This document shows, piece by piece, positions 7,365-36,138 of a DNA stretch of 38,758 nt (within the stretch, counting starts at the first letter, position 1; each line of letters opens with the position of its first letter). The notes beneath the pieces were generated by a model. That model was not told where the DNA came from. It worked only from the letters and a program-made list of their open reading frames with translations, and searched no databases. The position numbers and the translations under genes were made by a program. This DNA is from a virus (taxonomy: Duplodnaviria > Heunggongvirae > Uroviricota > Caudoviricetes). Where the stretch lies: IMG/VR virus record IMGVR_UViG_2541047683_000001; one strand, written 5' to 3'.

Positions 7365-9775
7365 GCCATGCTGATATGAACAACTGCAGCGGCTTTAACG
7401 AGGTCGCCGCAGCATTCTCATGGAACAGCCCGAAAAAGGCCATTAACCCTTATCTGGACCCGGCGGAAGTTGCGCCGGTTTCTGCGCTTTCAAACCTGAT
7501 CACTCTGTACGCTACTGATAACGAGCAGGAACAACTGCGCCGCGAGGCACTGAGTGATCAGGTCTGGGAGCGTTATTTCTTTAATGAATCCCGTGATCCT
7601 GTCCAACGCGAAATGGAGCAGGATAAGCTCATTAGCCGGGCAAAGATGGCGCATGAGCAGCAGCGTTTTAATCCGGACATGGTCATTCTGGCCGACGTCA
7701 ACGCCCAGCCTTCCCATATCAGCAAGCCGCTGATGCAACGTATTGAATATTTCAGCAACCTGGGCAGGCCAAAGGCTTATTCCCGCTATTTGCGTGAGAC
7801 GATTAAGCCATGTCTGGAACGACTGGAGCATGTACGCGACAGCCAGCTATCTGCATCTTTTCGTTTTATGGCAAGCCATGAAGGGCTGGACGGTCTGCTG
7901 ATCCTGCCTGAAATGAGTCAGGATCAGGTGAAACGCCTGTCTACCCTTGTCGCTGCGCATATGAGCATGTGTCTTGATGCCGCTTGTGGTGATTTGTACG
8001 CCTCCGATGATGTTAAGCCAGAAGAAATCCGCAAGACATGGGAAAAGGTGGCTGCAGAAACCCTGCGACTGGATGTCATACCGCCTGCGTTTGAGCAACT
8101 CCGCCGGAAAAGAAACCGCCGCAAACCTGTGCCCTATGAACTCATTCCGGGTTCGCTGGCGCGTATGCTGTGCGCCGACTGGTGGTATCGGAAATTATGG
8201 AAGATGCGTTGCGAATGGCGGGAAGAGCAGTTGCGTGCTGTCTGCCTGGTCAGCAAAAAAGCATCTCCCTATGTCAGCTATGAAGCCGTGATGCATAAAC
8301 GTGAGCAGCGCCGTAAGTCGCTGGAGTTTTTCCGTTCTCATGAACTGGTGAACGAAGACGGCGACACGCTGAACATGGAGGATGTGGTAAACGCCAGCAG
8401 CAGCAACCCGGCGCATCGCCGCAATGAGATGATGGCCTGTGTTAAAGGCCTGGAGCTTATCGCGGAAATGCGTGGTGACTGCGCCGTTTTTTACACTATC
8501 ACCTGTCCGTCACGTTTCCATTCCACGCTAAATAACGGCAGGCCAAACCCGACCTGGACCAACGCGACAGTAAGACAAAGCAGCGATTATCTGGTCGGCA
8601 TGTTTGCTGCATTTCGTAAGGCTATGCACAAAGCCGGGTTGCGCTGGTATGGCGTGCGGGTGGCTGAGCCGCATCATGACGGCACAGTTCACTGGCACCT
8701 GTTGTGTTTCATGCGCAAAAAAGACCGCCGCGCCATTACTGCATTGTTGCGTAAGTTTGCCATCCGTGAAGACCGCGAGGAGCTGGGCAATAACACGGGG
8801 CCACGCTTTAAGTCTGAGCTGATAAACCCGCGCAAAGGAACGCCGACAAGCTACATTGCGAAATATATCAGTAAGAATATTGACGGGCGTGGTCTGGCTG
8901 GCGAGATCAGTAAGGAAACGGGTAAATCCCTGCGTGATAACGCTGAATACGTTAATGCCTGGGCGTCTCTGCATCGTGTTCAGCAATTCCGCTTCTTTGG
9001 CATTCCGGGGCGTCAGGCTTACCGTGAACTGCGATTGCTGGCTGGTCAGGCGGCAAGGCAACAGGGTGACAAAAAAGCAGGTGCGCCGGTACTGGATAAC
9101 CCGCGCCTTGATGCCATCCTGGCTGCTGCTGATGCTGGTTGTTTTGCCACCTACATCATGAAGCAGGGCGGCGTACTGGTTCCCCGCAAATATCACCTCA
9201 TCAGAACCGCTTATGAAATCAACGAAGAGCCAACCGCCTATGGCGATCACGGTATTCGTATTTATGGCATCTGGTCACCCATTGCAGAGGGCAAGATCTG
9301 CACTCATGCAGTGAAGTGGAAAATGGTTCGTAAGGCCGTTGACGTTCAGGAGGCGGCAGCCGACCAGGGCGCTTGCGCCCCTTGGACTCGTGGCAATAAC
9401 TGTCCCCTTGCTGAAAATTTGAACCAACAAGGGAAAGACAAATCAGCTGATGGGGATACCAGGACGGACATTACCCGCATGGATGACAAGGAGTTGCACG
9501 ATTACCTGCACAGTATGAGCAAAAAAGAGCGCCGGGAACTGGCAGCAAGGTTACGCCTTGTGAAACCGAAACGGCGTAAAGACTACAAACAGCGAATTAC
9601 AGATCATCAGCGACAGCAGCTCGTGTATGAACTGAAGTCCAGGGGATTTGATGGCAGCGAGAAAGAGGTCGATTTACTGCTTCGCGGCGGCAGTATTCCA
9701 TCAGGAGCAGGCCTGCGTATCTTCTATCGGAACCAGCGTTTGCAGGAAGATGATAAGTGGCGAAACCTGTATTAA
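7361..9775 (+). CDS. A: replication initiation protein (P2 gpA / 186 RepA-like rolling-circle initiator)
   Basis: 804-aa ORF; HWHLLCF HUH-type motif and YIAKYISKN tyrosine motif; ATGA overlap with dam stop. Confidence 0.9.
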
Positions 9776-11306: not shown

Positions 11307-11382
11307 CGCGCGGTTTGACTGAAAAGTTATGATAAATCACAATTAGGTCTAGTTAGCATTTTTTCTTTTCATGGAGACAACT

Positions 11383-11883
11383 ATGGAACAGGATTATATA
11401 GATCGTGGCTTTGGTTTATGGTCAAAACCTGGTGTCCCGCGTAAGGGATGGGTAAACGTAGGAGTGGAAGACCTAGAAGAAAGTCGAAAAATTTGTGATA
11501 TGTGTGGGAAAACAGAGATAAGGTATGTCCACATAATGTCACATGAGAATTACCCAGATTACTTAGAGGTAGGGTGCATATGCGCTGGTCACTTGGAGAA
11601 TGATTATGATTCTCCAAGAAAACGAGAAAGTGAAATTAAAAGTCGATCAGCCAAAAGAAAAAGATGGTGTAACTTACCTTGGAAAATATCTAAAAAAAAT
11701 CAATTTTACATAAAAAAAGATGGATATAGCATCATCATTCTCGACAAGGGTGATTATTTTATGGGAATGATAGTTGACGAGAGAACGCAAATTAAATATT
11801 GGACTAGAGAATGTAAAGATACTAACGAGGCGAAATTACTTTCATTCGATAGAATAACAGCGCTAATGGCAAGCTCTAAATAA
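11383..11883 (+). CDS. zinc-ribbon-like protein, first gene of a two-gene accessory cassette
   Basis: ATG 11383 with GGAGA upstream (track ORF starts 11371); cysteine cluster CDMCGK...VGCICAGH; lysine/arginine-rich tail; AT-rich. Confidence 0.65.
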   Translation: MEQDYIDRGFGLWSKPGVPRKGWVNVGVEDLEESRKICDMCGKTEIRYVHIMSHENYPDYLEVGCICAGHLENDYDSPRKRESEIKSRSAKRKRWCNLPWKISKKNQFYIKKDGYSIIILDKGDYFMGMIVDERTQIKYWTRECKDTNEAKLLSFDRITALMASSK

Positions 11884-11899
11884 TTTTAGGATTAATTAA

Positions 11900-13030
11900 A
11901 TGTATAATGTTGTATTGGATACAAACATACTCCATGCGGAAGGTATTCACTCACGAGGTATGGCAACTCTTAAAAAGTTAATAGATGAAGGCATTGTTAA
12001 AGTTCATTTGCCTGAACTAGTCGTGAGAGAATTTTCCACGAAAAAAATCACCGTAATAAATGAAGCCTATAATAAGGCGATTAATATTTTAAGAGGCACT
12101 GAACGCGAAGCAAGAGGATCCGAAGAGTCGATACTGCGAGATATTGATGAACTAAAAAACATCATAGACGACAAAGTGAAAGTACTTGATGAAAAAATTA
12201 ATGGTGCAGTTAGGCAATGGATTCAGGATTTTCGAATAAATATTATCCCGTTACATAGTGAATTTACATCAACTGTTTTTGAGAACTATTTTTGTGGCAA
12301 TGGTGTTTTTAAATCGAAAAAATCAAGAGAAGACATACCAGATGCTTTCATTAGCCTCAGTATCGAAAAGTTGCATGATGAAGTCGGTGAATTAATGGTT
12401 GTACTCAAGGATGCGTTGTTTAGAAAGCATTTGTCTGGCTTGGATGGGGTAAAAGTTTATGATAGCTTAGATGAACTTTTCCAATTGCCTAACATTAGAG
12501 CCAGTTTAGAAAATGAAGCCGCATCCTCTTTTTTGACATCAAGTTTATTCAGAACAGCGTTAGAAAACTTCTTACAGCAGAAACCGAATTATTTCGAAGG
12601 ATTCTATCTTGAGATTACTGAGGGAACAGAACTGCTTGCTGATTGGGTTATTGGTGCACATACCGAAATCAACGATTATGGACAAGTAAAGGATATTACA
12701 ATAAGTGATGTAATCAGAAAATCTGAAAGTAACTATTCAGCAAAAATTTCTTTTAAATTGGACTCTAATATCTCTTATGTAACGGATTACGGTGAAGTGC
12801 TTAAAATAGAGAGAGATAAAAACAGAAGCGCGGATTGTTGGAGTATGACAGGTGATGGCATGTGCGATCTTAATGAAAATGTGAATTTAACCTTGGAAGG
12901 TGACTTAAGTATTACCTTTCAAGGTGATTTCAATACATTGAAAAAAGAAGAATCCGAAACTTATTTGAATGAAAATGTTATTGTTATGACAATAAGTTTA
13001 TATGAGGCTATTATAGACAAAGTTCTTTGA
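11900..13030 (+). CDS. PIN-like domain protein, second gene of the cassette
   Basis: 376 aa; N-terminus MYNVVLDTNIL typical of PIN-fold first acidic residue, later EDIPDAF; AGGA RBS; 17 bp after upstream gene; AT-rich. Confidence 0.7.
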   Translation: MYNVVLDTNILHAEGIHSRGMATLKKLIDEGIVKVHLPELVVREFSTKKITVINEAYNKAINILRGTEREARGSEESILRDIDELKNIIDDKVKVLDEKINGAVRQWIQDFRINIIPLHSEFTSTVFENYFCGNGVFKSKKSREDIPDAFISLSIEKLHDEVGELMVVLKDALFRKHLSGLDGVKVYDSLDELFQLPNIRASLENEAASSFLTSSLFRTALENFLQQKPNYFEGFYLEITEGTELLADWVIGAHTEINDYGQVKDITISDVIRKSESNYSAKISFKLDSNISYVTDYGEVLKIERDKNRSADCWSMTGDGMCDLNENVNLTLEGDLSITFQGDFNTLKKEESETYLNENVIVMTISLYEAIIDKVL

Positions 13031-18657: not shown

Positions 18658-19122
18658 ATGAAGTTTGTTGCGCCAGAACAGGCACCGGAACAGGCGGAAA
18701 TCATCAGAAATACGCCGTTCTGGCCTGATGTGGACCTGTCGGAGTTTCGCAGTGTCATGCGCACTGACGGCACGGTGACGCAGCCGCGTTTAAAGCAGGT
18801 TGCGCTGTCGGCAATTTCGGAGGTCAACGCAGAGCTGTATGAGTTTCGCAGACGCCAGCAGATGCTGGGGTATGCCTCGCTGGCAGAGGTTCCGGCGGAA
18901 CAGCTGGACGGCAAAAGTGAGCGCATTCAGCACTATTTCAACGCGGTTTACTGCTGGGCACGCGCCATGCTCAACGAACGTTACCAGGACTATGACGCCA
19001 CGGCATCCGGTGTGAAGCGGGGCGAGGAACTGGCAGAAGCCAGCGGTGATTTATGGCGTGACGCCCGCTGGGCCATCAGCCGGGTACAGGACGCGCCGCA
19101 CTGCACAGTGGAGCTTATCTGA
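18658..19122 (+). CDS. L: head completion protein (P2 gpL-like)
   Basis: ATG 18658 with GGAGAAAG RBS (track ORF 18595 has an RBS-less extension); position after M. Confidence 0.85.
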   Translation: MKFVAPEQAPEQAEIIRNTPFWPDVDLSEFRSVMRTDGTVTQPRLKQVALSAISEVNAELYEFRRRQQMLGYASLAEVPAEQLDGKSERIQHYFNAVYCWARAMLNERYQDYDATASGVKRGEELAEASGDLWRDARWAISRVQDAPHCTVELI

Positions 19123-19325
19123 TGAAAGTGCGTGCGCATCAGTATGACACGGTGGACGCGCTTTGCTGGCGTCATTACGGGCGCACGCAGGGTGTCACGG
19201 AGCAGGTACTGAAGGCAAATCCGGGGCTTGCCGAATATGGCCCCTTTTTACCTCACGGGCTGCAGGTGGAGCTGCCGGACATTCCGACAACCACCACCGT
19301 GCAGACCGTCCAGCTATGGGACTGA
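19122..19325 (+). CDS. X: tail protein X (LysM-like)
   Basis: 67 aa MKVRAHQYDTVDALCWRHYG..., gpX family; TGATG overlap with L. Confidence 0.85.
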   Translation: MKVRAHQYDTVDALCWRHYGRTQGVTEQVLKANPGLAEYGPFLPHGLQVELPDIPTTTTVQTVQLWD

Positions 19326-19328
19326 ATT

Positions 19329-19544
19329 ATGACGCTTGAGCGAATCAGCGCCTTTATCACGTATTGCATCGCCGTCGTGCTGGCCTGGCTGGGCGATTTG
19401 TCCATCAAGGATGCCTCAACGCTGGGCGGCCTGATGATCGGTGTGCTGATGCTGGCTATCAACTGGTACTACAAACACAAAGCCTACCAGCTTCTGCGCG
19501 ACGGGCAGATCACGCGGGAGGACTATGAATCCATCAATCGTTAA
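19329..19544 (+). CDS. holin (possible pinholin)
   Basis: 71 aa with two hydrophobic helices and charged C-terminus, directly upstream of endolysin. Confidence 0.7.
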   Translation: MTLERISAFITYCIAVVLAWLGDLSIKDASTLGGLMIGVLMLAINWYYKHKAYQLLRDGQITREDYESINR

Positions 19545-20040
19545 ACGCTGCCTTGTAGGGGCCGTGCTGGCTATTGCTGCCACGCTGCCGGGTTTTCAGC
19601 AGCTTCACACCTCCGTGGAGGGGCTGAAACTGATTGCCGATTACGAAGGTTGTCGTCTGCAGCCGTATCAGTGTAGCGCGGGTGTCTGGACCGACGGCAT
19701 TGGTAATACATCGGGCGTCATTCCCGGCAAAACAATCACGGAACGACAGGCAGCAGAAGGGCTGATCTCCAACGTGCTGCGTGTGGAGCGGGCGCTGGAA
19801 AGGTGTGTGAAGCAACAGCCGCCGCAGAAGGTGTATGACGCGGTGGTGTCGTTTGCCTTCAACGTGGGTACGGGCAATGCCTGCAGTTCCACGCTGGTGA
19901 AATTGCTCAATCAGCGCCGCTGGGCGGATGCGTGCCGACAGTTGCCGCGCTGGGTGTATGTAAAAGGTGTGTTTAATCAGGGGCTGGATAACCGCCGTGC
20001 GCGGGAGATGGCCTGGTGCCTTAAAGGAGCTGGACTATGA
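19525..20040 (+). CDS. SAR endolysin (GH24 lysozyme, phage 21 R-like)
   Basis: N-terminal signal-anchor-release segment CLVGAVLAIAATLPG, catalytic YEG...D...T region, C-terminal ACRQLPRWVY block. Confidence 0.85.
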   Translation: MNPSIVKRCLVGAVLAIAATLPGFQQLHTSVEGLKLIADYEGCRLQPYQCSAGVWTDGIGNTSGVIPGKTITERQAAEGLISNVLRVERALERCVKQQPPQKVYDAVVSFAFNVGTGNACSSTLVKLLNQRRWADACRQLPRWVYVKGVFNQGLDNRRAREMAWCLKGAGL

Positions 20041-20465
20041 CGCGTGCGTTGGCAGTAGTGGTGGCGCTGGCACTCGTTGCGCTGGGCTGGCAGTCGTGGC
20101 GGCTTAACAGCGCCAGCCACACCATCGAAACGCAGCGCGCGGCGCTGAAAAGTAAAGCGCAAGAACTGACGAAGAAAAACAGCCAGCTGATCGGTCTGTC
20201 CATTCTGGCTGAAACCAACAACCGGGAGCAGGCGCGGCTCTACGCCGAAGCAGAACAGACCAGCGCACTGCTGAGACAACGACAACGCCGGATTGAGGAA
20301 CTGAAACGTGAGAACGAGGATTTACGCCGCTGGGCTGATACTCCTTTGCCTGCTGACATTATCCGGCTGCGGGAACGTCCGGAACTCACCGGAGGTGCAG
20401 CTTACCGTCAGTGGTTGTCCGCGAGTGACGCCGTGTCGGCTGGATCAGGCAGCGCCGCGCACTAA
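20037..20465 (+). CDS. i-spanin (Rz/LysB-like)
   Basis: N-terminal transmembrane helix, coiled-coil middle, C-terminal WADTPLPADIIRL. Confidence 0.75.
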   Translation: MTRALAVVVALALVALGWQSWRLNSASHTIETQRAALKSKAQELTKKNSQLIGLSILAETNNREQARLYAEAEQTSALLRQRQRRIEELKRENEDLRRWADTPLPADIIRLRERPELTGGAAYRQWLSASDAVSAGSGSAAH

Positions 20466-20598
20466 CGGTGATCTGAACGCATTGCTGGATGAAACGGAGG
20501 CCGCCTGGGCGGTCTGTGCAGACAAAGTGGACATGATTATTGCGTGTCAGGAGCGAAACAGTGAACAAACCACAATCCCTGCGCCACGCCCTAAATAA
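20308..20598 (+). CDS. o-spanin (Rz1/LysC-like lipoprotein) in +1 frame within and beyond the i-spanin gene
   Basis: GTG start with GAGGAA RBS; lipobox LTLSGC; proline-rich mature part. Confidence 0.7.
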   Translation: MRTRIYAAGLILLCLLTLSGCGNVRNSPEVQLTVSGCPRVTPCRLDQAAPRTNGDLNALLDETEAAWAVCADKVDMIIACQERNSEQTTIPAPRPK

Positions 20599-20992
20599 AG
20601 CAGTGCCTTATGTCCGCAATAACCCGGACAAACTGCATCTGTTTGTGGATAACGGTTCGCTGGTTGCCACGGGGGCCAGCTCCATGTCATGGGAGTACCG
20701 TTATACCCTCAACGTGGTGATTGAGGATTTCAGCGGCGACCAGAATCTGCTGATGGCCCCGGTTTTGCTGTGGCTGCGTGATAACCAGCCCGATGCCATC
20801 AATAACCCGGCGTTACGGGAAAAACTATTCACCTTTGAGGTGGATATTTTGCGCAACGATGTCTGTGATATCAGCCTTAACCTGCAACTGACGGAGCGTG
20901 TGCTGGTCAGTACTGACGGCAGTGTGTCGAGTGTTGAAGCTGTAGCGGAACCCGATGAACCTGAAGAAATGTGGACGGTGAAACGTGGCTGA
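20561..20992 (+). CDS. R: tail completion protein (P2 gpR-like)
   Basis: GTG 20561 with AGGAG 8 nt upstream gives MNKPQSLRHAL matching the gpR N-terminus; conserved FVDNGS...RYTLNVV. Confidence 0.85.
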   Translation: MNKPQSLRHALNKAVPYVRNNPDKLHLFVDNGSLVATGASSMSWEYRYTLNVVIEDFSGDQNLLMAPVLLWLRDNQPDAINNPALREKLFTFEVDILRNDVCDISLNLQLTERVLVSTDGSVSSVEAVAEPDEPEEMWTVKRG

Positions 20993-21428
20993 ACTGCAGA
21001 AGGTGGACGACTGGCTGAGTGCTTTGTTGGCGAATCTGGAACCAGCCGCAAGAAGCCGCATGATGCGGCAGCTGGCGCAGGAACTGCGTCGGACACAGCA
21101 GCAGAATATCAGAATGCAGCGCAATCCAGATGGCAGCAGTTATGAACCTCGACGGGTAACAGCACGCAGTAAAAAGGGGCGCATCAAACGTCAGATGTTT
21201 GCAAAGCTGCGCACCACAAAATACCTGAAAACTGCCGCCAGCGCCGACTCTGCCAGCGTACAGTTTGAAGGTAAGGTGCAGCGTATTGCCCGTGTTCACC
21301 ATTACGGCCTGCGTGATCGCGTCAGTCATAAAGGGCCGGAGGTCCGTTACGCAGAGCGTCGCCTTCTGGGTGTGAATAATGAGGTGGAAACAGTCACTCG
21401 TGACACCCTTATGCGCTGGCTGGGTTAG
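20985..21428 (+). CDS. S: tail completion protein (P2 gpS-like)
   Basis: 147-aa ORF following R, GTG start; gpS-like. Confidence 0.85.
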   Translation: MAELQKVDDWLSALLANLEPAARSRMMRQLAQELRRTQQQNIRMQRNPDGSSYEPRRVTARSKKGRIKRQMFAKLRTTKYLKTAASADSASVQFEGKVQRIARVHHYGLRDRVSHKGPEVRYAERRLLGVNNEVETVTRDTLMRWLG

Positions 21429-22330
21429 AGACTAATTTCTAACTCAGTCAATCTATTTCTTGCGTTATCGAGGTTAATCTCATCATGGATTGCTTTTCCT
21501 GCCCCGTCAGCAGAAGGGTATATGCTAGCCGCACTGAACCCTGCTTTATTAAGAAGCTGGTAAGCATTGTATACTTCTTTTATGGGGAGTGTGTATTTAA
21601 AGAATACCGGGTGCGGGAAATCCCCAGAAAGCTCCTCTAGGCTATGAATTGTAGCTGTCCGTCCTCGTCCGCCAGTATGTGGATGAACGCTAAAAAGCCC
21701 AAATTGCGCCGCTAAGTGCGGACTGATAGAACCTGCTGTTGAATGCAATTTTATTTGTGGGTGAAGATTTATAAACTCTTTATTAAAGGCCCATATGGCT
21801 AATTTACTGGATGCATTCCAGTTTTTATAATTAGCAATGCAGGAGCTAACTGCAAAGTAAATCGCTATGTAAGGGATTCGAGTCCAATCTAACAATCTTG
21901 TTGGCACGCCATGATGCTGTGCGAGAGCCATTAAGTCGAAAACTTCTGGATTTGGCCAAGATGATGGATTTATAAGCCAATAATCTTGATTATTTATATC
22001 TAAATGCAATCTGCGGAAGTCAGGGCTATTACCGGGGATACGGACACCTACTCTGTCACAGTGATGCACAAAAGACATTAATGTTATTATCTCGCTTGCA
22101 ACAATGTCATCCGACGTAGGTGATGTTCTTCTTGTTAAATATTGCGGTGGATTACGAAGTGCTGATGGGATCAAGCTCCAGTTGGCATCACCTTGCCCTC
22201 TATAAATAATATTATCTTTACAGTTTGGGTCTATCTTTTGTGTCGGTGATAGAGCATCCCAAAGTTCAGCTGCATTGTTAAATTCGCGTAGTGAAAAAGT
22301 CGGGTATTTACGTTCGCTCATTATTTTCAT
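21425..22330 (-). CDS. FRG-domain-like protein inserted antisense between S and V (candidate defence cargo)
   Basis: Track ORF 21425..22366 starts at GTG; first ATG at 22330; motif IIYRGQGDANWSLIPSALR resembles the FRG-domain signature; stop codon overlaps S stop; no clear RBS. Confidence 0.6.
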   Translation of the reverse strand: MKIMSERKYPTFSLREFNNAAELWDALSPTQKIDPNCKDNIIYRGQGDANWSLIPSALRNPPQYLTRRTSPTSDDIVASEIITLMSFVHHCDRVGVRIPGNSPDFRRLHLDINNQDYWLINPSSWPNPEVFDLMALAQHHGVPTRLLDWTRIPYIAIYFAVSSCIANYKNWNASSKLAIWAFNKEFINLHPQIKLHSTAGSISPHLAAQFGLFSVHPHTGGRGRTATIHSLEELSGDFPHPVFFKYTLPIKEVYNAYQLLNKAGFSAASIYPSADGAGKAIHDEINLDNARNRLTELEISL

Positions 22331-26333: not shown

Positions 26334-26926
26334 TGAAACCTGTTTTTGATGAAAATGGGCTGGCTACAGTGCCGGGCGATATGCGTTGTTTTTATTATGA
26401 TGCTGAAACATCTGAGTATACGGGCTGGTCTGATGAATATATTAATACTGGCGTAAGTATGCCCGCCTGTTCCACTGGTATTGACCCTGGCGAAAACATT
26501 CCGGGAAAAGTAGCAGTATTTACGGGTAAGGGATGGAGCCATGAAGAAGACCATCGCAATGAGACCGTTTACTCAACTGAAAATGGCGCAGCTGTTACAG
26601 TGGATTATATCGGTGCCATCAAAGACGGTTATGTCACGCTTTCACCGTTAACGCCATACGATAAATGGGATGGTGAGAAATGGGTGACGGATACCGAGGC
26701 ACAGCATAGCGCCGCAGTAGAAGCGGCAGAAGCACAGCGCCAGTCGCTGATTGATGCTGCAATGGCTTCCATCAGTCTGATTCAACTGAAATTACAGGCC
26801 GGACGGAAGTTGACGCAGGCAGAAACAACCCGACTTAACGCCGTGCTGGATTACATTGACGCGGTGGCGGCAACAGATACCAGCACCGCGCCGGATGTCA
26901 TCTGGCCTGAACTGCCGGAGGCGTAG
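26333..26926 (+). CDS. G: tail fibre assembly protein (P2 gpG / Tfa-like)
   Basis: 197 aa with Tfa-type C-terminus VDTSTAPDVIWPELP; TAATG coupling with H. Confidence 0.85.
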   Translation: MKPVFDENGLATVPGDMRCFYYDAETSEYTGWSDEYINTGVSMPACSTGIDPGENIPGKVAVFTGKGWSHEEDHRNETVYSTENGAAVTVDYIGAIKDGYVTLSPLTPYDKWDGEKWVTDTEAQHSAAVEAAEAQRQSLIDAAMASISLIQLKLQAGRKLTQAETTRLNAVLDYIDAVAATDTSTAPDVIWPELPEA

Positions 26927-27125
26927 GCCATTCAATATCTGGTGCACTGGAAGTATCGACCAGTTCCAGTGCGTCCAGGTAATCCAGCCACAAATTATAT
27001 TGTGCCAGTTCCTCACCTTTCAGACAACCAATAGCTGCTTTGCCAGGCCATTGCTTACTGTTTATAAACTCATTAGCCCAGTCTATTCGCAGCTGTTTCT
27101 CTGCTTCGGCAGCAATAACAATCTC
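26898..27125 (-). pseudogene. inverted 3' fragment of a second tail fibre assembly gene (remnant of invertible fibre segment)
   Basis: Minus-strand ORF ends LWLDYLDALELVDTSSAPDIEWPTPP (Tfa C-terminus), tail-to-tail with G and overlapping it by about 29 nt; N-terminal part replaced by AT-rich sequence from about 27126. Confidence 0.6.
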
Positions 27126-27169
27126 ATATAAATGAAACTGATAAGTTTTTATTAAAAGTAAGATGGATA

Positions 27170-27192
27170 CCACCATTTAATATAAATGGTGG
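27170..27192 (-). terminator. hairpin immediately downstream of the 290-aa cargo gene
   Basis: CCACCATTT(aatat)AAATGGTGG perfect 9-bp stem right after stop at 27200 on the minus strand, followed by a T-rich tract. Confidence 0.4.
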
Positions 27193-27199
27193 TTCACAG

Positions 27200-28072
27200 T
27201 TAACTAGCGTGTAATAAGTTGAACAGGTTTTTAGTTACTTCGTTTTTAGTACTAAAAAACATATCTTTAAGGTCAGGTAATGCAAAGAGAGCATTTGGGG
27301 CATTCGGTACAACAATAGGAGGTTCATATCCGTTGTCATACATTTTCTTTAAAGCGGCTACTATTTTTTTCTGATTTCGATTGAATTCATTCATGTCAAT
27401 AAAAATTTCTCCAGATAGTGTCCCGTCATCTTCACGTAGTATCGCTGGTTTGACACGACATATCTGATCCATTTCTCCAGTAGAAAAACCGGCAATCGCT
27501 GCATTAAATAACAAAGATGAAGTAGCCCATTTTTCATATAGTTTTTTGATAGCCATGCTTCTGATTTTTTTATCGTTGATATATCCAATGCCACTGGCCA
27601 AAACTTCGGTTAATGGATTTTCCCCGCGAGTTACTCCAGACCAATAGTTGTGCATCCAGGGCGCATTTTGCTCAAGTGGAGAGCCGAGATAATCAGTGAT
27701 CCACTCTGAATCCACCTCTGTAAAGTTCAAACCATGAAAATCAATTTCTGCAATAGTATTTTTATAGTTTTGATTTAAACTCCAACGGTCGATTGCTATT
27801 TCAGCCATTTCTTTTGTTTTGAATAGGTATATTCCGGTTAGGCGGGAAACCTTATCTCTGAAATTGTCTGAGCGAACCTTTTCAAGAGCTAACTCATTTT
27901 GTAATTTTTCATTGTGATTATCTGATAAGTATTTCCTTACTAGATTGTAGAACCAAATAGATACTCCAAACTCACTTTTATAGCAAATTGATTCAATTCT
28001 TCCTATTGCAACCTCCCAGGCAACAATTGGATTATTTAAATTTAAGTAAGCATATAGTTTTCTCTGTTCCAT
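27200..28072 (-). CDS. hypothetical 290-aa protein, AT-rich cargo at the tail fibre/invertase locus (candidate defence or exclusion gene)
   Basis: Track ORF 27200..28171; ATG 28072 with AAGGAAA RBS (upstream extension is AT-rich and RBS-less); globular-looking, not fibre-like; no motif I recognise. Confidence 0.6.
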   Translation of the reverse strand: MEQRKLYAYLNLNNPIVAWEVAIGRIESICYKSEFGVSIWFYNLVRKYLSDNHNEKLQNELALEKVRSDNFRDKVSRLTGIYLFKTKEMAEIAIDRWSLNQNYKNTIAEIDFHGLNFTEVDSEWITDYLGSPLEQNAPWMHNYWSGVTRGENPLTEVLASGIGYINDKKIRSMAIKKLYEKWATSSLLFNAAIAGFSTGEMDQICRVKPAILREDDGTLSGEIFIDMNEFNRNQKKIVAALKKMYDNGYEPPIVVPNAPNALFALPDLKDMFFSTKNEVTKNLFNLLHAS

Positions 28073-28209
28073 TTTTATTTTCCTTATAGATGCTATGAAG
28101 GTTATTATTACATAAATGTTCGATAAATATTTTAAAGTTTTAACTATGTTTCGGTGGCAATAAATATACATTACAAGTGAAATTTATCAAGATAACAAAA
28201 GGATAGCTA

Positions 28210-28614
28210 ATGCTAATAGGCTATGTACTCGTGTCAACAAATGACCAGAACACCGAGCTGTAACTCTTTATGCTGACAGAAGAGTTGCGCCAGCATGGTG
28301 TGAATTTTAGAAGCCTGACTGACAGTATTGATACCAGTACCCCAATGGGCCGTTTCTTTTTTCATGTCACGGGTGCCCTGGCTGAAATGGAACGCGAACT
28401 GATAGTTGAACGTACCAGGGCGGGGCTTGCTGCAGCTCGCGCCAAAGGCAGAGTAGGTGGACGCCGTCCTAAGTTGACCACCGAACAGTGGGCACAGATT
28501 GGGCGTTTACTCGAGGCCGGAGAATCAAGACAGCGTATTGCACTGATTTTTGATGTGGGTGTTTCCACAATTTATAGAAAATTTCCGCCAAATAAGAGCA
28601 ATGAATCCCCCTGA
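28210..28614 (+). pseudogene. serine DNA invertase (Pin/Gin/Hin family) inactivated by in-frame internal deletion with stop codon
   Basis: N-terminus MLIGYVLVSTNDQNTEL then TAA at 28261, continuing in frame with EELRQHGVNFRSLTDSIDTSTPMGRFFFHVTGALAEMERELI...GRRPKLT (C-terminal two-thirds of an invertase); about 65 catalytic-domain codons missing; R-to-L change in GYVRVS motif. Confidence 0.8.
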
Positions 28615-28662
28615 ATCAGCATAATTTTGATTATCCCTGCAAGCAGACAAATACCGTCATTT

Positions 28663-35926: not shown

Positions 35927-36138
35927 CGTTAAAAAACAGTGCTTCTAACATCATGATTTTAAAAGGCATAAATTTTAGACAACAAAAAACCCACCAACCT
36001 TGAACCGAAATGGCGGGGTTGATGGGCTCCACAAAATGGGGACATCAAAGAAAAGCAGTGGCACTAATTAAGACTGATGCCCTGCGGAAAAGTTCTGCGG
36101 TTGTGCAAAAAAATTTCATTTTCAGGGCAACTTCAGTT

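Follow-up and report, generated by a model that had tools for sequence, protein, structure and literature searches.

Lysis cassette of a P2-like Escherichia coli prophage with an HP1-family holin, a predicted P1 Lyz-type SAR endolysin, and P2-type overlapped spanins

Gene content and layout of the cassette

The DNA analyzed here (the window) is a stretch of 38,758 nucleotides from a virus of the Caudoviricetes (IMG/VR record IMGVR_UViG_2541047683_000001). Positions 19329 to 20598 hold an intact, ordinary lysis cassette of a P2-like (Peduoviridae) E. coli prophage, comprising four intact, closely packed genes for a holin, an endolysin, an i-spanin, and an o-spanin (Table 1). All four open reading frames lie where an earlier reading, made from the letters alone (the sequence-only reading), had placed them.

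Table 1. Features of the lysis cassette and its flanking genes (positions in the window)
Feature	Position	Strand	Evidence or remark
Tail gene X (upstream neighbor, as in P2)	19122..19325	+	PF05489 2.2e-34; 61% identity to P2 X
Class II holin, 71 aa, HP1 holin family	19329..19544	+	PF16080; phrog_20
Predicted SAR endolysin, 171 aa, GH24 muramidase, P1 Lyz type	19525..20040	+	PF00959 2.7e-40
Predicted SAR segment, endolysin codons 9-24, CLVGAVLAIAATLPGF, including Cys9	19549..19596	+	After K7-R8
Endolysin codons 41-56: triad Glu41/Cys50/Thr56 and predicted caging Cys43	19645..19692	+	Aligned with P1 Lyz
lysB, i-spanin, 142 aa, N-terminal TMD	20037..20465	+	TIGR03495; phrog_89
lysC, o-spanin lipoprotein precursor, 96 aa, +1 frame, GTG start	20308..20598	+	NF038368; PF23793
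Tail completion gene R, GTG start (PGAP agrees)	20561..20992	+	PF06891 4e-48

Gene identities and families, the conservation of motifs and cysteines, gene architecture, and distribution are direct observations. Profile searches (Pfam, PHROG, and NCBIfam equivalogs) were combined with pairwise BLASTP and, for the endolysin, with PDB sequence matching, while hydrophobicity was scored as mean KD and summed Hessa dG, a test of composition only. E-values of the family matches ranged from 4e-9 to 5e-51, and the matches are therefore not due to chance.

Translation signals are good: lys, lysB, lysC, and R have strong Shine-Dalgarno sequences, and their starts are coupled. The holin and endolysin genes overlap by 20 nt, and the lysB ATG overlaps the endolysin stop codon (ATGA). 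No regulatory RNA within the cassette was matched by Rfam, and terminator-like sites are no commoner there than in shuffled sequence. The sole convincing terminator is at positions 21417 to 21450, after gene S. Small alternative-frame ORFs within 19329 to 20598 have no obvious hydrophobic segment, as judged by eye. The cassette encodes no dual-start antiholin and, LysA also being missing, lysis-timing control is not visible in its sequence.

Holin and endolysin

The holin has hydrophobic segments at residues 6 to 22 and about 28 to 48, predicted to form two TMDs (class II), and a basic KHK stretch follows the second; the sequence-only reading of a two-helix holin ahead of the endolysin was thus correct. 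The protein scored 36.7 bits against PF16080, the HP1 holin family (TC 1.E.7; cut-off, 28.8), matched phrog_20 at 1.9e-26, and is encoded by a gene that PGAP names “HP1 family phage holin.” Against PF04971, the S21 family, it scored 23.1 bits, under the cut-off of 26, and it is accordingly not assigned to that family. In BLASTP, similarity to HP1 Hol was insignificant (21% identity; E, 0.23) and similarity to the S21-like EssD was marginal (20 residues matched; E, 0.002), so that it is only the PF16080 profile that places the protein in the HP1 family.

The first transmembrane segment, ISAFITYCIAVVLAWLG, is strongly hydrophobic (summed dG, −0.6; KD, 2.12) and not rich in Gly, Ala, or Ser, compared with a dG of +7.0 and a KD of 0.56 for TMD1 of EssD and a dG of +3.9 for that of HP1 Hol. 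The weaker helix in the window's holin is TMD2 rather than TMD1. By composition, therefore, this TMD1 does not resemble an SAR-like, membrane-exiting segment (−0.56 versus +7.0 in EssD). A dual start was rejected: an in-frame TGA (19323 to 19325) lies two codons before the ATG, and residues 2 to 35 include no Met. TMD2 has a small-xxx-small pattern (S30/G34/G38), and its G33, G34, and G38 align with TMD2 of EssD. The description of the holin as “pinholin-like” depends on remote homology and was overstated: the two TMDs and the SAR endolysin partner agree with it, while the subthreshold S21 profile, the TMD1 composition, and the single start do not. As far as can be judged from the protein sequence, pinholin status is plausible but unproven.

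The endolysin scored 138 bits against PF00959 (Phage_lysozyme/GH24; cut-off, 22.3) and belongs to phrog_7. As the sequence-only reading had proposed, an SAR-like N terminus precedes this GH24 core, K7 and R8 being followed by 16 uncharged residues (C9 to F24). The hydrophobic core is short, at only 13 residues (C9 to L21), and Ala, Gly, and Thr occur within it; over residues 5 to 21, the most hydrophobic stretch of 17 residues, mean KD is 1.95 and summed dG is +3.1, values compatible with an SAR segment.

The resemblance to phage 21 R that had been proposed gives way to a closer one. The best match among solved structures is P1 Lyz (1XJT/1XJU; 1.1e-26), compared with 8.1e-18 for R21 (3HDE), and the motif EGCRxxPYxCxAGVWTDGIGNT is conserved between the endolysin and P1 Lyz. 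The published GH24 triad is Glu-X8-(Asp/Cys)-X5-Thr, for which P1 uses Cys51 (PMC8228626). In the window's endolysin the triad is of the form Glu-X8-Cys-X5-Thr, its Glu41/Cys50/Thr56 aligning with P1 Lyz Glu42/Cys51/Thr57, and Cys9, Cys43, and Cys50 align with P1 Lyz Cys13, Cys44, and Cys51, Cys43 lying two residues after the catalytic Glu. The P1 Lyz sequence used here was verified against 1XJT over residues 11 to 181, a span that takes in Cys13, Cys44, and Cys51. All three cysteines are present in each of the nine Lyz-type sequences aligned, down to 35% identity, and the R21-like RrrD has Ala, Val, and Asp at these positions. Because the endolysin carries the P1 cysteine set, activation by disulfide isomerization is predicted. 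An R21-type SAR endolysin was rejected, as Cys50 replaces Asp44 of RrrD/R21, and RrrD lacks counterparts of Cys9 and Cys43. The endolysin is better described as P1-Lyz-like (cysteine-switched) than as R21-like, and we class it as a predicted SAR endolysin of the P1 Lyz (disulfide isomerization) type.

Neither protein is a counterpart of P2 Y or K. BLASTP in a seven-sequence set gave no significant match of the holin or endolysin to either (E at least 0.001), and the families differ: PF16080 and phrog_20 for the holin versus PF04550 and phrog_175 for P2 Y, and PF00959 and phrog_7 for the endolysin versus phrog_90 for P2 K, which has no PF00959 match. The sequence-only reading was thus correct that the endolysin is not P2 K.

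Spanins, lysA, and distribution

The genes after the endolysin are of P2 type. LysB scored 172.7 bits against TIGR03495 (phage_LysB; cut-off, 92.75; 4.5e-51), shares phrog_89 with P2 LysB, has its TMD at residues 1 to 17, and in BLASTP matches the C-terminal half of P2 LysB with 34% identity (E, 1.6e-9). LysC scored 123.9 bits against NF038368 (P2_Rz1; cut-off, 27; 2.2e-36) and matched PF23793 at 1.7e-15. It is 42% identical to full-length P2 LysC over residues 1 to 92, with Met1 aligned, and its Cys21, Cys37, Cys43, Cys70, and Cys80 are at positions identical to those in P2 LysC. The lipobox LTLSGC occupies residues 16 to 21, with L18-S19-G20-C21 encoded at 20359 to 20370. The residue at +2 after the lipidated Cys is Gly rather than Asp. 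Under the Lol sorting rule, a residue other than Asp, such as Gly, at +2 of a lipoprotein points to the outer membrane, and sorting of LysC to the outer membrane is therefore indicated.

The lysC gene begins 158 nt before the lysB stop codon and ends 133 nt after it. A Shine-Dalgarno sequence, TGAGGA, lies 8 nt upstream of GTG 20308, and this start is favored because the protein then regains its signal peptide and agrees with P2 LysC; the RefSeq start, CTG 20350, is probably wrong. The overlap of lysC with R is exactly 38 nt, and the corresponding P2 overlap is likewise 38 nt. P2 is the named textbook example of the “overlapped” spanin class (PMC6139136). Judged from sequence, the window's spanins are plain P2 LysB/LysC equivalogs of this class. 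The o-spanin features that had been reported, namely, the lipobox, the +1 frame, the start inside the i-spanin gene, and the extension into R, were confirmed, but an overlapping spanin pair cannot be counted as a departure from P2, which itself defines the class. The broader claim that the cassette departs from canonical P2 holds for the holin and endolysin, which replace Y and K, and fails for the other two of the four genes, which are the ordinary P2 homologues that would count against it.

A tblastn search of the whole window with P2 LysA and the LysA homologue of relatives found no lysA, in agreement with the sequence-only reading, and tblastn for hidden P2 Y, K, or LysA anywhere in the window gave chance matches only. 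P2 LysA belongs to phrog_162, and P2 lysA is annotated as nonessential. The LysA homologue of relatives is a protein of 125 aa with four TMDs, encoded between lys and lysB; it is found there in 780 E. coli genomes, compared with 234 that have the window's direct lys-lysB junction (a ratio of about 3:1). Loss of lysA by simple recent deletion was rejected, as the junction and the N-terminal half of LysB match those of the lysA-less Salmonella phage RE-2010. The difference from lysA-positive relatives is a mosaic replacement reaching into the 5′ half of lysB rather than a clean deletion.

The cassette is not unusual: about a fifth of complete E. coli genomes (1029 of 5426) contain the hol-lys DNA, compared with 1498 for the P2-type Y-K. 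Several Peduoviridae genera have it as well, the arrangement X-hol-lys-(lysA)-lysB-lysC-R being shared by phages of Wadgaonvirus, Felsduovirus, Dagavirus, Duonihilunusvirus, and Eganvirus, and PGAP annotates the cassettes of relatives as “HP1 family phage holin / lysozyme / LysB / LysC.” DNA identity is 95 to 100% to the roughly 1000 E. coli prophage copies, to Escherichia phages Cartapus and 500465-1 (Wadgaonvirus), and to Klebsiella phages KP12 and 4LV2017, and the cassette proteins of RE-2010 (Felsduovirus) are 79 to 94% identical to those of the window; all five phages have the order X-hol-lys-lysB-lysC-R. The LysA homologue is present in 500465-1, KP12, 4LV2017, and the 780 E. coli genomes but not in the window, Cartapus, or RE-2010. 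Cartapus matches the window without the lysA insertion, and RE-2010 shares the lysA-less junction and the endolysin C terminus (…CLKGAGL) of the window and has a 91%-identical LysB. Klebsiella phage ST13-OXA48phi12.1 also has the lysA-less arrangement, with gene lengths identical to those in the window. The 95%-identical KP12 cassette has been described as a P1-Lyz-like SAR endolysin with overlapped spanins of the P2 type, in a study that also expressed and purified the endolysin in order to test its lytic activity (PMC9902359). P2-like prophages thus have two common alleles of the lysis module, of which this already known cassette is one. In E. coli P2-like prophages, two interchangeable holin-endolysin modules precede the same LysB/LysC spanins, and lysA is optional in the module with an HP1-type holin and a Lyz-type SAR endolysin.

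Proposed lysis pathway, alternatives, and known systems

We consider it very likely that the cassette is a late-operon module in which Y-K of P2 has given way to a class II holin of the HP1 family and an SAR endolysin of the P1 Lyz type, LysB and LysC are kept, and lysA is absent. A pathway can be proposed by analogy with P1 Lyz, HP1 Hol/Lys, and lambda Rz/Rz1, which serve as models for membrane topology, the disulfide switch, the size of the holes, and the sequence of events. The endolysin would be exported by Sec and remain anchored in the inner membrane through its weakly hydrophobic SAR segment, where it would be inactive because catalytic Cys50 is disulfide bonded to Cys43. The holin would build up in the inner membrane until, at a programmed time, lesions (probably small pinholes) collapse the proton motive force. 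Depolarization would let the SAR segment exit the bilayer, and the Cys9 thiol could then attack the Cys43-Cys50 bond and form Cys9-Cys43. With Cys50 freed, the endolysin would refold and degrade murein. LysB in the inner membrane and LysC, an outer-membrane lipoprotein, once freed from the murein meshwork, would fuse both membranes.

Hole size is where the preferred reading has its most serious competitor. The holin could be a canonical large-hole class II holin that still triggers the SAR endolysin by depolarization, as P1 LydA does for Lyz, and we regard this as possible, with the balance against it. It would account for a TMD1 so much more hydrophobic (−0.56) than that of S21 (+7.0) and not rich in Gly, Ala, or Ser, for the PF04971 score under the cut-off, and for the lack of a dual start, and SAR endolysins are established to work with either holin type (P1 LydA/Lyz; named in PMC9025707). 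Against it stands the PF16080 score above the gathering cut-off, as the family founder, from HP1, acts as a pinholin with an SAR endolysin in a P2-like phage, without β-galactosidase release (PMC7312051). The small two-TMD size, the small-xxx-small pattern of TMD2 with its EssD-aligned glycines, and the pairing of an HP1-family holin with an SAR endolysin at all Peduoviridae loci inspected also speak against large holes. A phage-21-type system, as the sequence-only reading had it, with an R21-like, sterically regulated SAR endolysin and an S21-like pinholin, is improbable. The logic of a small two-TMD holin with an SAR GH24 enzyme is the same, R21/RrrD are detectable homologues (8e-18), and the S21 Pfam family gives a subthreshold match; however, the catalytic residue is Cys rather than Asp, the SAR and caging cysteines are not in RrrD/R21, P1 Lyz is the closer match (1e-26), and TMD1 of the holin is not SAR-like.

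Even less probable is that the endolysin N terminus is a cleavable Sec signal peptide and the enzyme is secreted and soluble rather than SAR tethered. Such a peptide would be suggested by the basic n-region (K7, R8), the shortness of the hydrophobic core, and a possible signal peptidase site at small residues (A16-I17-A18 or P22-G23). [quoted passage not shown] That the cassette is a decaying remnant, with lysA deleted and a prophage that lyses poorly, is the least credible of the alternatives. The excess of genomes with a LysA homologue over those with the direct junction (780 versus only 234) could be taken in its favor, but none of the four genes is disrupted and their translation signals are good, the lysA-less arrangement recurs in RE-2010, ST13-OXA48phi12.1, and Cartapus, P2 lysA is itself nonessential by annotation, and the mosaic replacement into 5′ lysB is not a clean deletion.

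The importance of the cassette goes little beyond annotation. We suggest, as an unlikely idea, that enterobacterial HP1-family holins may differ in topology from S21, with TMD1 stably embedded and TMD2 weak. If true, such a topology would agree with the N-in/C-out active form, itself unusual, that has been suggested for HP1 Hol, and the lysA-plus/minus dimorphism in E. coli would be a natural test of LysA as an antiholin or timer for the holin and SAR endolysin.

Among known systems, the P2 cassette (Y, K, lysA, lysB, lysC) likewise sits in the late O operon with X on one side and R on the other, and its spanins have the same PHROGs, NCBIfam equivalogs, and +1-frame overlap architecture, apart from two cysteines in P2 LysB and none in the window's LysB. 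In contrast, P2 Y is a three-TMD holin and P2 K a soluble endolysin, both unrelated to the proteins of the window. P1 Lyz, which is activated by disulfide isomerization, has SAR, caging, and catalytic cysteines at equivalent positions and about 36% identity to the window's endolysin; the P1 holin LydA and antiholin LydB are unrelated to the window's holin. Phage 21 and DLP12 (S21-R21 and EssD-RrrD) have an SAR GH24 endolysin and a 71-aa two-TMD holin whose TMD2 and C-terminal junction (…N-x-Y-[YF]-K) resemble those of the window's holin, but the R21 triad has Asp and there are no regulatory cysteines, S21 has an SAR-like TMD1 and a dual start, and the spanins are embedded Rz/Rz1 rather than overlapped. 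The P2-like Haemophilus phage HP1 has an experimentally studied pinholin and SAR endolysin. HP1 Hol is of the same Pfam family as the window's holin and likewise lacks a dual start, HP1 Lys has the same Cys motif as the window's endolysin (34% identity; 1e-27), and a LysB-like gene follows the SAR endolysin in both. HP1 differs in its weakly hydrophobic Hol TMD1 and in the location of its cassette, which follows the tail tube gene rather than X, and the endolysins of both P1 and HP1 have an insertion of ∼11 residues after the NVG motif that the window's endolysin lacks.

The prophage and its lysis cassette

The lysis cassette is real and intact, its function can be assigned confidently, and the module is already known and very common. 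Its ORFs agree exactly, in coordinates and overlaps, with those of the sequence-only reading. Good Shine-Dalgarno (ribosome-binding) sequences are present at the lys, lysB, lysC, and R starts, and lysC begins 158 nt ahead of the lysB stop. Judged from profile matches, the family assignments are unambiguous, and the PHROGs labels are holin, endolysin, and Rz-like spanins. Matches to the 1.6-kb cassette occur in 58 phage records (Klebsiella, 44; Escherichia, 6; Salmonella, 6) and in 1,038 of 5,426 complete E. coli genomes, with 100% identity in three and PGAP names already present. The holin-lys pair alone is found in 1,029 E. coli genomes and the P2-type Y-K pair in 1,498. The holin has tblastn matches in 83 phage records and, in every annotated record among the matches listed, adjoins an endolysin or a tail gene of a P2-like phage. 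The gene order X-hol-lys-(lysA)-lysB-lysC-R also occurs in Wadgaonvirus, Felsduovirus, Dagavirus, Duonihilunusvirus, and Eganvirus. The 95% identical cassette of Klebsiella phage KP12 has been published as a P1-Lyz-like SAR (signal-arrest-release) endolysin with P2-type overlapped spanins, and the KP12 endolysin was expressed, purified, and assayed for lytic activity (PMC9902359).

The window differs at 33 of its 38,758 positions from the E. coli strain C4 chromosome (NZ_CP010121.1, 3393067-3431824, reverse strand). A complete P2-like prophage lies within the window, extending from the integrase (left end) to ogr (∼35.7 kb), with ybjL and the RybB sRNA gene as neighbors and a 186-like early region (CI repressor, CII, and Fil). 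The RybB gene lies ∼80 nt outside the ogr end, which suggests an attachment site at or beside rybB. The FRG-domain gene lies in the S/V interval, in the moron (accessory-gene) slot of P2 orf30, and is convergent with S, the two having a common terminator-like hairpin at 21417-21450. The AAA_15 ATPase is probably a prophage-borne anti-phage nuclease. The two-gene insert separates the replication region from portal gene Q at the old/tin hotspot of P2; neither of its genes has a PADLOC match. The tail fiber neighbors comprise a fragment of a tail fiber assembly gene, a 323-aa ORF, and a recombinase pseudogene without its N terminus and together look like a decayed invertible tail fiber segment.

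Features of the lysis cassette, its surroundings, and a related locus
Feature	Position	Strand	Remarks
X	19122-19325	+	Upstream neighbor
Holin, 71 aa	19329-19544	+	PF16080 (HP1 holin family), 36.7 bits (cutoff 28.8)
Endolysin (lys), 171 aa	19525-20040	+	PF00959, 2.7e-40; 20-nt overlap with holin gene
lysB, 142 aa	20037-20465	+	ATGA start/stop overlap with lys; TIGR03495 phage_LysB, 172.7 bits (cutoff 92.75)
lysC, 96 aa	20308-20598	+ (+1 frame)	GTG start; PF23793, 1.7e-15; NF038368 P2_Rz1, 123.9 bits (cutoff 27)
R	From 20561	+	GTG start; 38-nt overlap with lysC
FRG-domain protein, 313 aa	21425-22366	-	PF08867, 2e-19; PADLOC candidate defense family PDC-S15, 1e-31
AAA_15 ATPase with OLD-like TOPRIM domain, 661 aa	1131-3116	-	Between integrase and CI repressor; PADLOC AriA-like, Old-like
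Two-gene insert	11371-13030	+	170-aa protein without family; 376-aa PIN_12-domain protein
Tail fiber neighbors	26900-28620		323-aa ORF at 27200-28171 (-), without family
RybB sRNA gene	35981-36059	-	Rfam RF00110, 104 bits
378-bp lysA homologue	1440-1817 of phage 500465-1 locus L002		Compare window 20037

Endolysin and holin

The endolysin had been read as a SAR protein of the GH24 family resembling R21 of phage 21 and not P2 K. The GH24 assignment and the distance from K stand, but the protein is of the P1 Lyz type and not the R21 type. Alignment with both, which had been proposed as a check, places P1 Lyz closer: it is the best match among all PDB sequences (1XJT, 1.1e-26; 1XJU, 2.8e-25), with weaker matches to R21 (3HDE, 8.1e-18) and to its DLP12 twin, RrrD (4ZPU, 1.2e-17). 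When aligned with P1 Lyz, HP1 Lys, RrrD, and six endolysins from other Peduoviridae, residues Glu41, Cys50, and Thr56 fall on the Glu-X8-(Asp/Cys)-X5-Thr triad, published as Glu42/Cys51/Thr57 in P1 and Glu35/Asp44/Thr50 in phage 21 (PMC8228626). Cys43 (P1 Cys44) and the single Cys of the N-terminal hydrophobic segment (Cys9, equivalent to P1 Cys13) are kept in all nine Lyz-type sequences aligned but not in RrrD. The N-terminal segments of Lyz-type endolysins are otherwise very divergent, and conservation of this Cys argues that the segment stays on the mature enzyme. It consists of K7-R8 followed by CLVGAVLAIAATLPGF, and its 17-residue window (mean KD hydrophobicity, 1.95; summed Hessa dG, +3.1) is marginal for stable insertion. 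By analogy with P1 Lyz, as reportedly described by Xu et al. 2005, we predict a membrane-tethered, disulfide-caged proenzyme, in which exit of the SAR segment from the bilayer would allow Cys9 to isomerize the Cys43-Cys50 bond and so activate the enzyme.

The holin has two predicted hydrophobic segments (TMD1 and TMD2). Inspection for an upstream in-frame stop and an early Met revealed no dual start: an in-frame TGA two codons upstream of the start precludes an N-terminal extension, and there is no early internal Met. The pinholin-like label given to this protein is an inference. The holin scores above the cutoff of the HP1-family model, and HP1 Hol has been found experimentally to kill cells without β-galactosidase release, is needed for lysis together with a SAR endolysin, and was termed a pinholin by its authors (PMC7312051). 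The S21 Pfam model, however, scored below its cutoff (23.1 versus 26). Pairwise identity of the holin to HP1 Hol is 21% (E, 0.23), and its match to the S21-like EssD is restricted to TMD2 and the junction (E, 0.002). A live rival is a canonical class II holin, favored by a strongly hydrophobic TMD1 (dG, −0.56; TMD2 is the weaker helix), unlike the membrane-exiting TMD1 of EssD/S21 (+7.0) or that of HP1 Hol (+3.9). We lean modestly toward a pinholin as the likelier of the two and use the label provisionally.

Spanins and the missing lysA

In LysB, a charged region with many Glu, Arg, Gln, and Leu residues follows an N-terminal TMD. LysC has a predicted 20-residue signal peptide (MRTRIYAAGLILLCLLTLSG, directly before the lipidated Cys), and the residue after that Cys is Gly; under the Lol rule, Gly at this position directs sorting to the outer membrane, which is thus the predicted destination of LysC. 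Starting lysC at CTG 20350, as PGAP/RefSeq does, would cost the protein most of its signal peptide. The better call is GTG 20308, because TGAGGA lies 8 nt upstream and the start aligns with that of P2 LysC. In several phage records, lysC is annotated only as a 117- to 171-nt fragment (500465-1, 813R9, and ST13-OXA48phi12.1) or not at all, and the 96-aa GTG ORF of Salmonella phage RE-2010 is unannotated.

In tblastn searches of the whole window, P2 Y, K, and LysA and the LysA homologue of the relatives all gave no match, bearing out the reported absence of lysA. In most close relatives, lys and lysB are separated by a 378-bp gene, whose 125-aa product has four TMDs and the NCBIfam name DNZ54_00345 family. 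This protein is a true LysA homologue, as it matches phrog_162, the PHROG of P2 LysA, over its full length (4.6e-43) and is bridged to P2 LysA by EtG gp11 (40% identical to P2 LysA). In E. coli, the homologue is present in 780 genomes and the direct lys-lysB junction of the window in 234, a dimorphism among cassettes that are otherwise ∼95% identical. A fresh deletion was rejected: the lysA-less RE-2010 has the same junction (both endolysins end in CLKGAGL), and the window LysB is 91% identical to that of RE-2010 versus 81% to that of lysA-plus 500465-1. On this evidence, the lysA-less form is an established allele. P2 lysA is annotated as nonessential, with an effect limited to lysis timing.

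Comparison with phage P2

The two cassettes were compared one protein at a time. The flanking X and R are 61% and 54% identical to their P2 counterparts. Similarity was not significant between the holin and P2 Y or between the endolysin and P2 K, and the profiles agree (P2 Y, PF04550/phrog_175; P2 K, phrog_90). LysC is 42% identical to P2 LysC over residues 1 to 92, with Met1 aligned and the four periplasmic Cys residues at identical positions, and LysB is 34% identical to P2 LysB in the C-terminal half (E, 1.6e-9). P2 and EtG LysB have two Cys residues near the C terminus (ACxxxxDC), whereas the window LysB and its close enterobacterial relatives have none. If disulfides join i-spanin homodimers, as they do in lambda Rz, the Cys-less LysB clade must manage without that link.

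The sequence-only reading had set the whole cassette apart from canonical P2. This applies to the holin, the endolysin, and the absence of lysA but not to the spanins, which are equivalogs of ordinary P2 LysB and LysC. P2 LysB and LysC belong to the same PHROGs and Pfam family as those of the window, P2 lysC (8202-8492) likewise overlaps R (8455-) by 38 nt, and P2 is cited as the example of "overlapped" spanin architecture (PMC6139136). By sequence comparison, therefore, the departures from P2 are only the holin-endolysin pair and the missing lysA, and the spanin half of the cassette is the canonical P2 arrangement.
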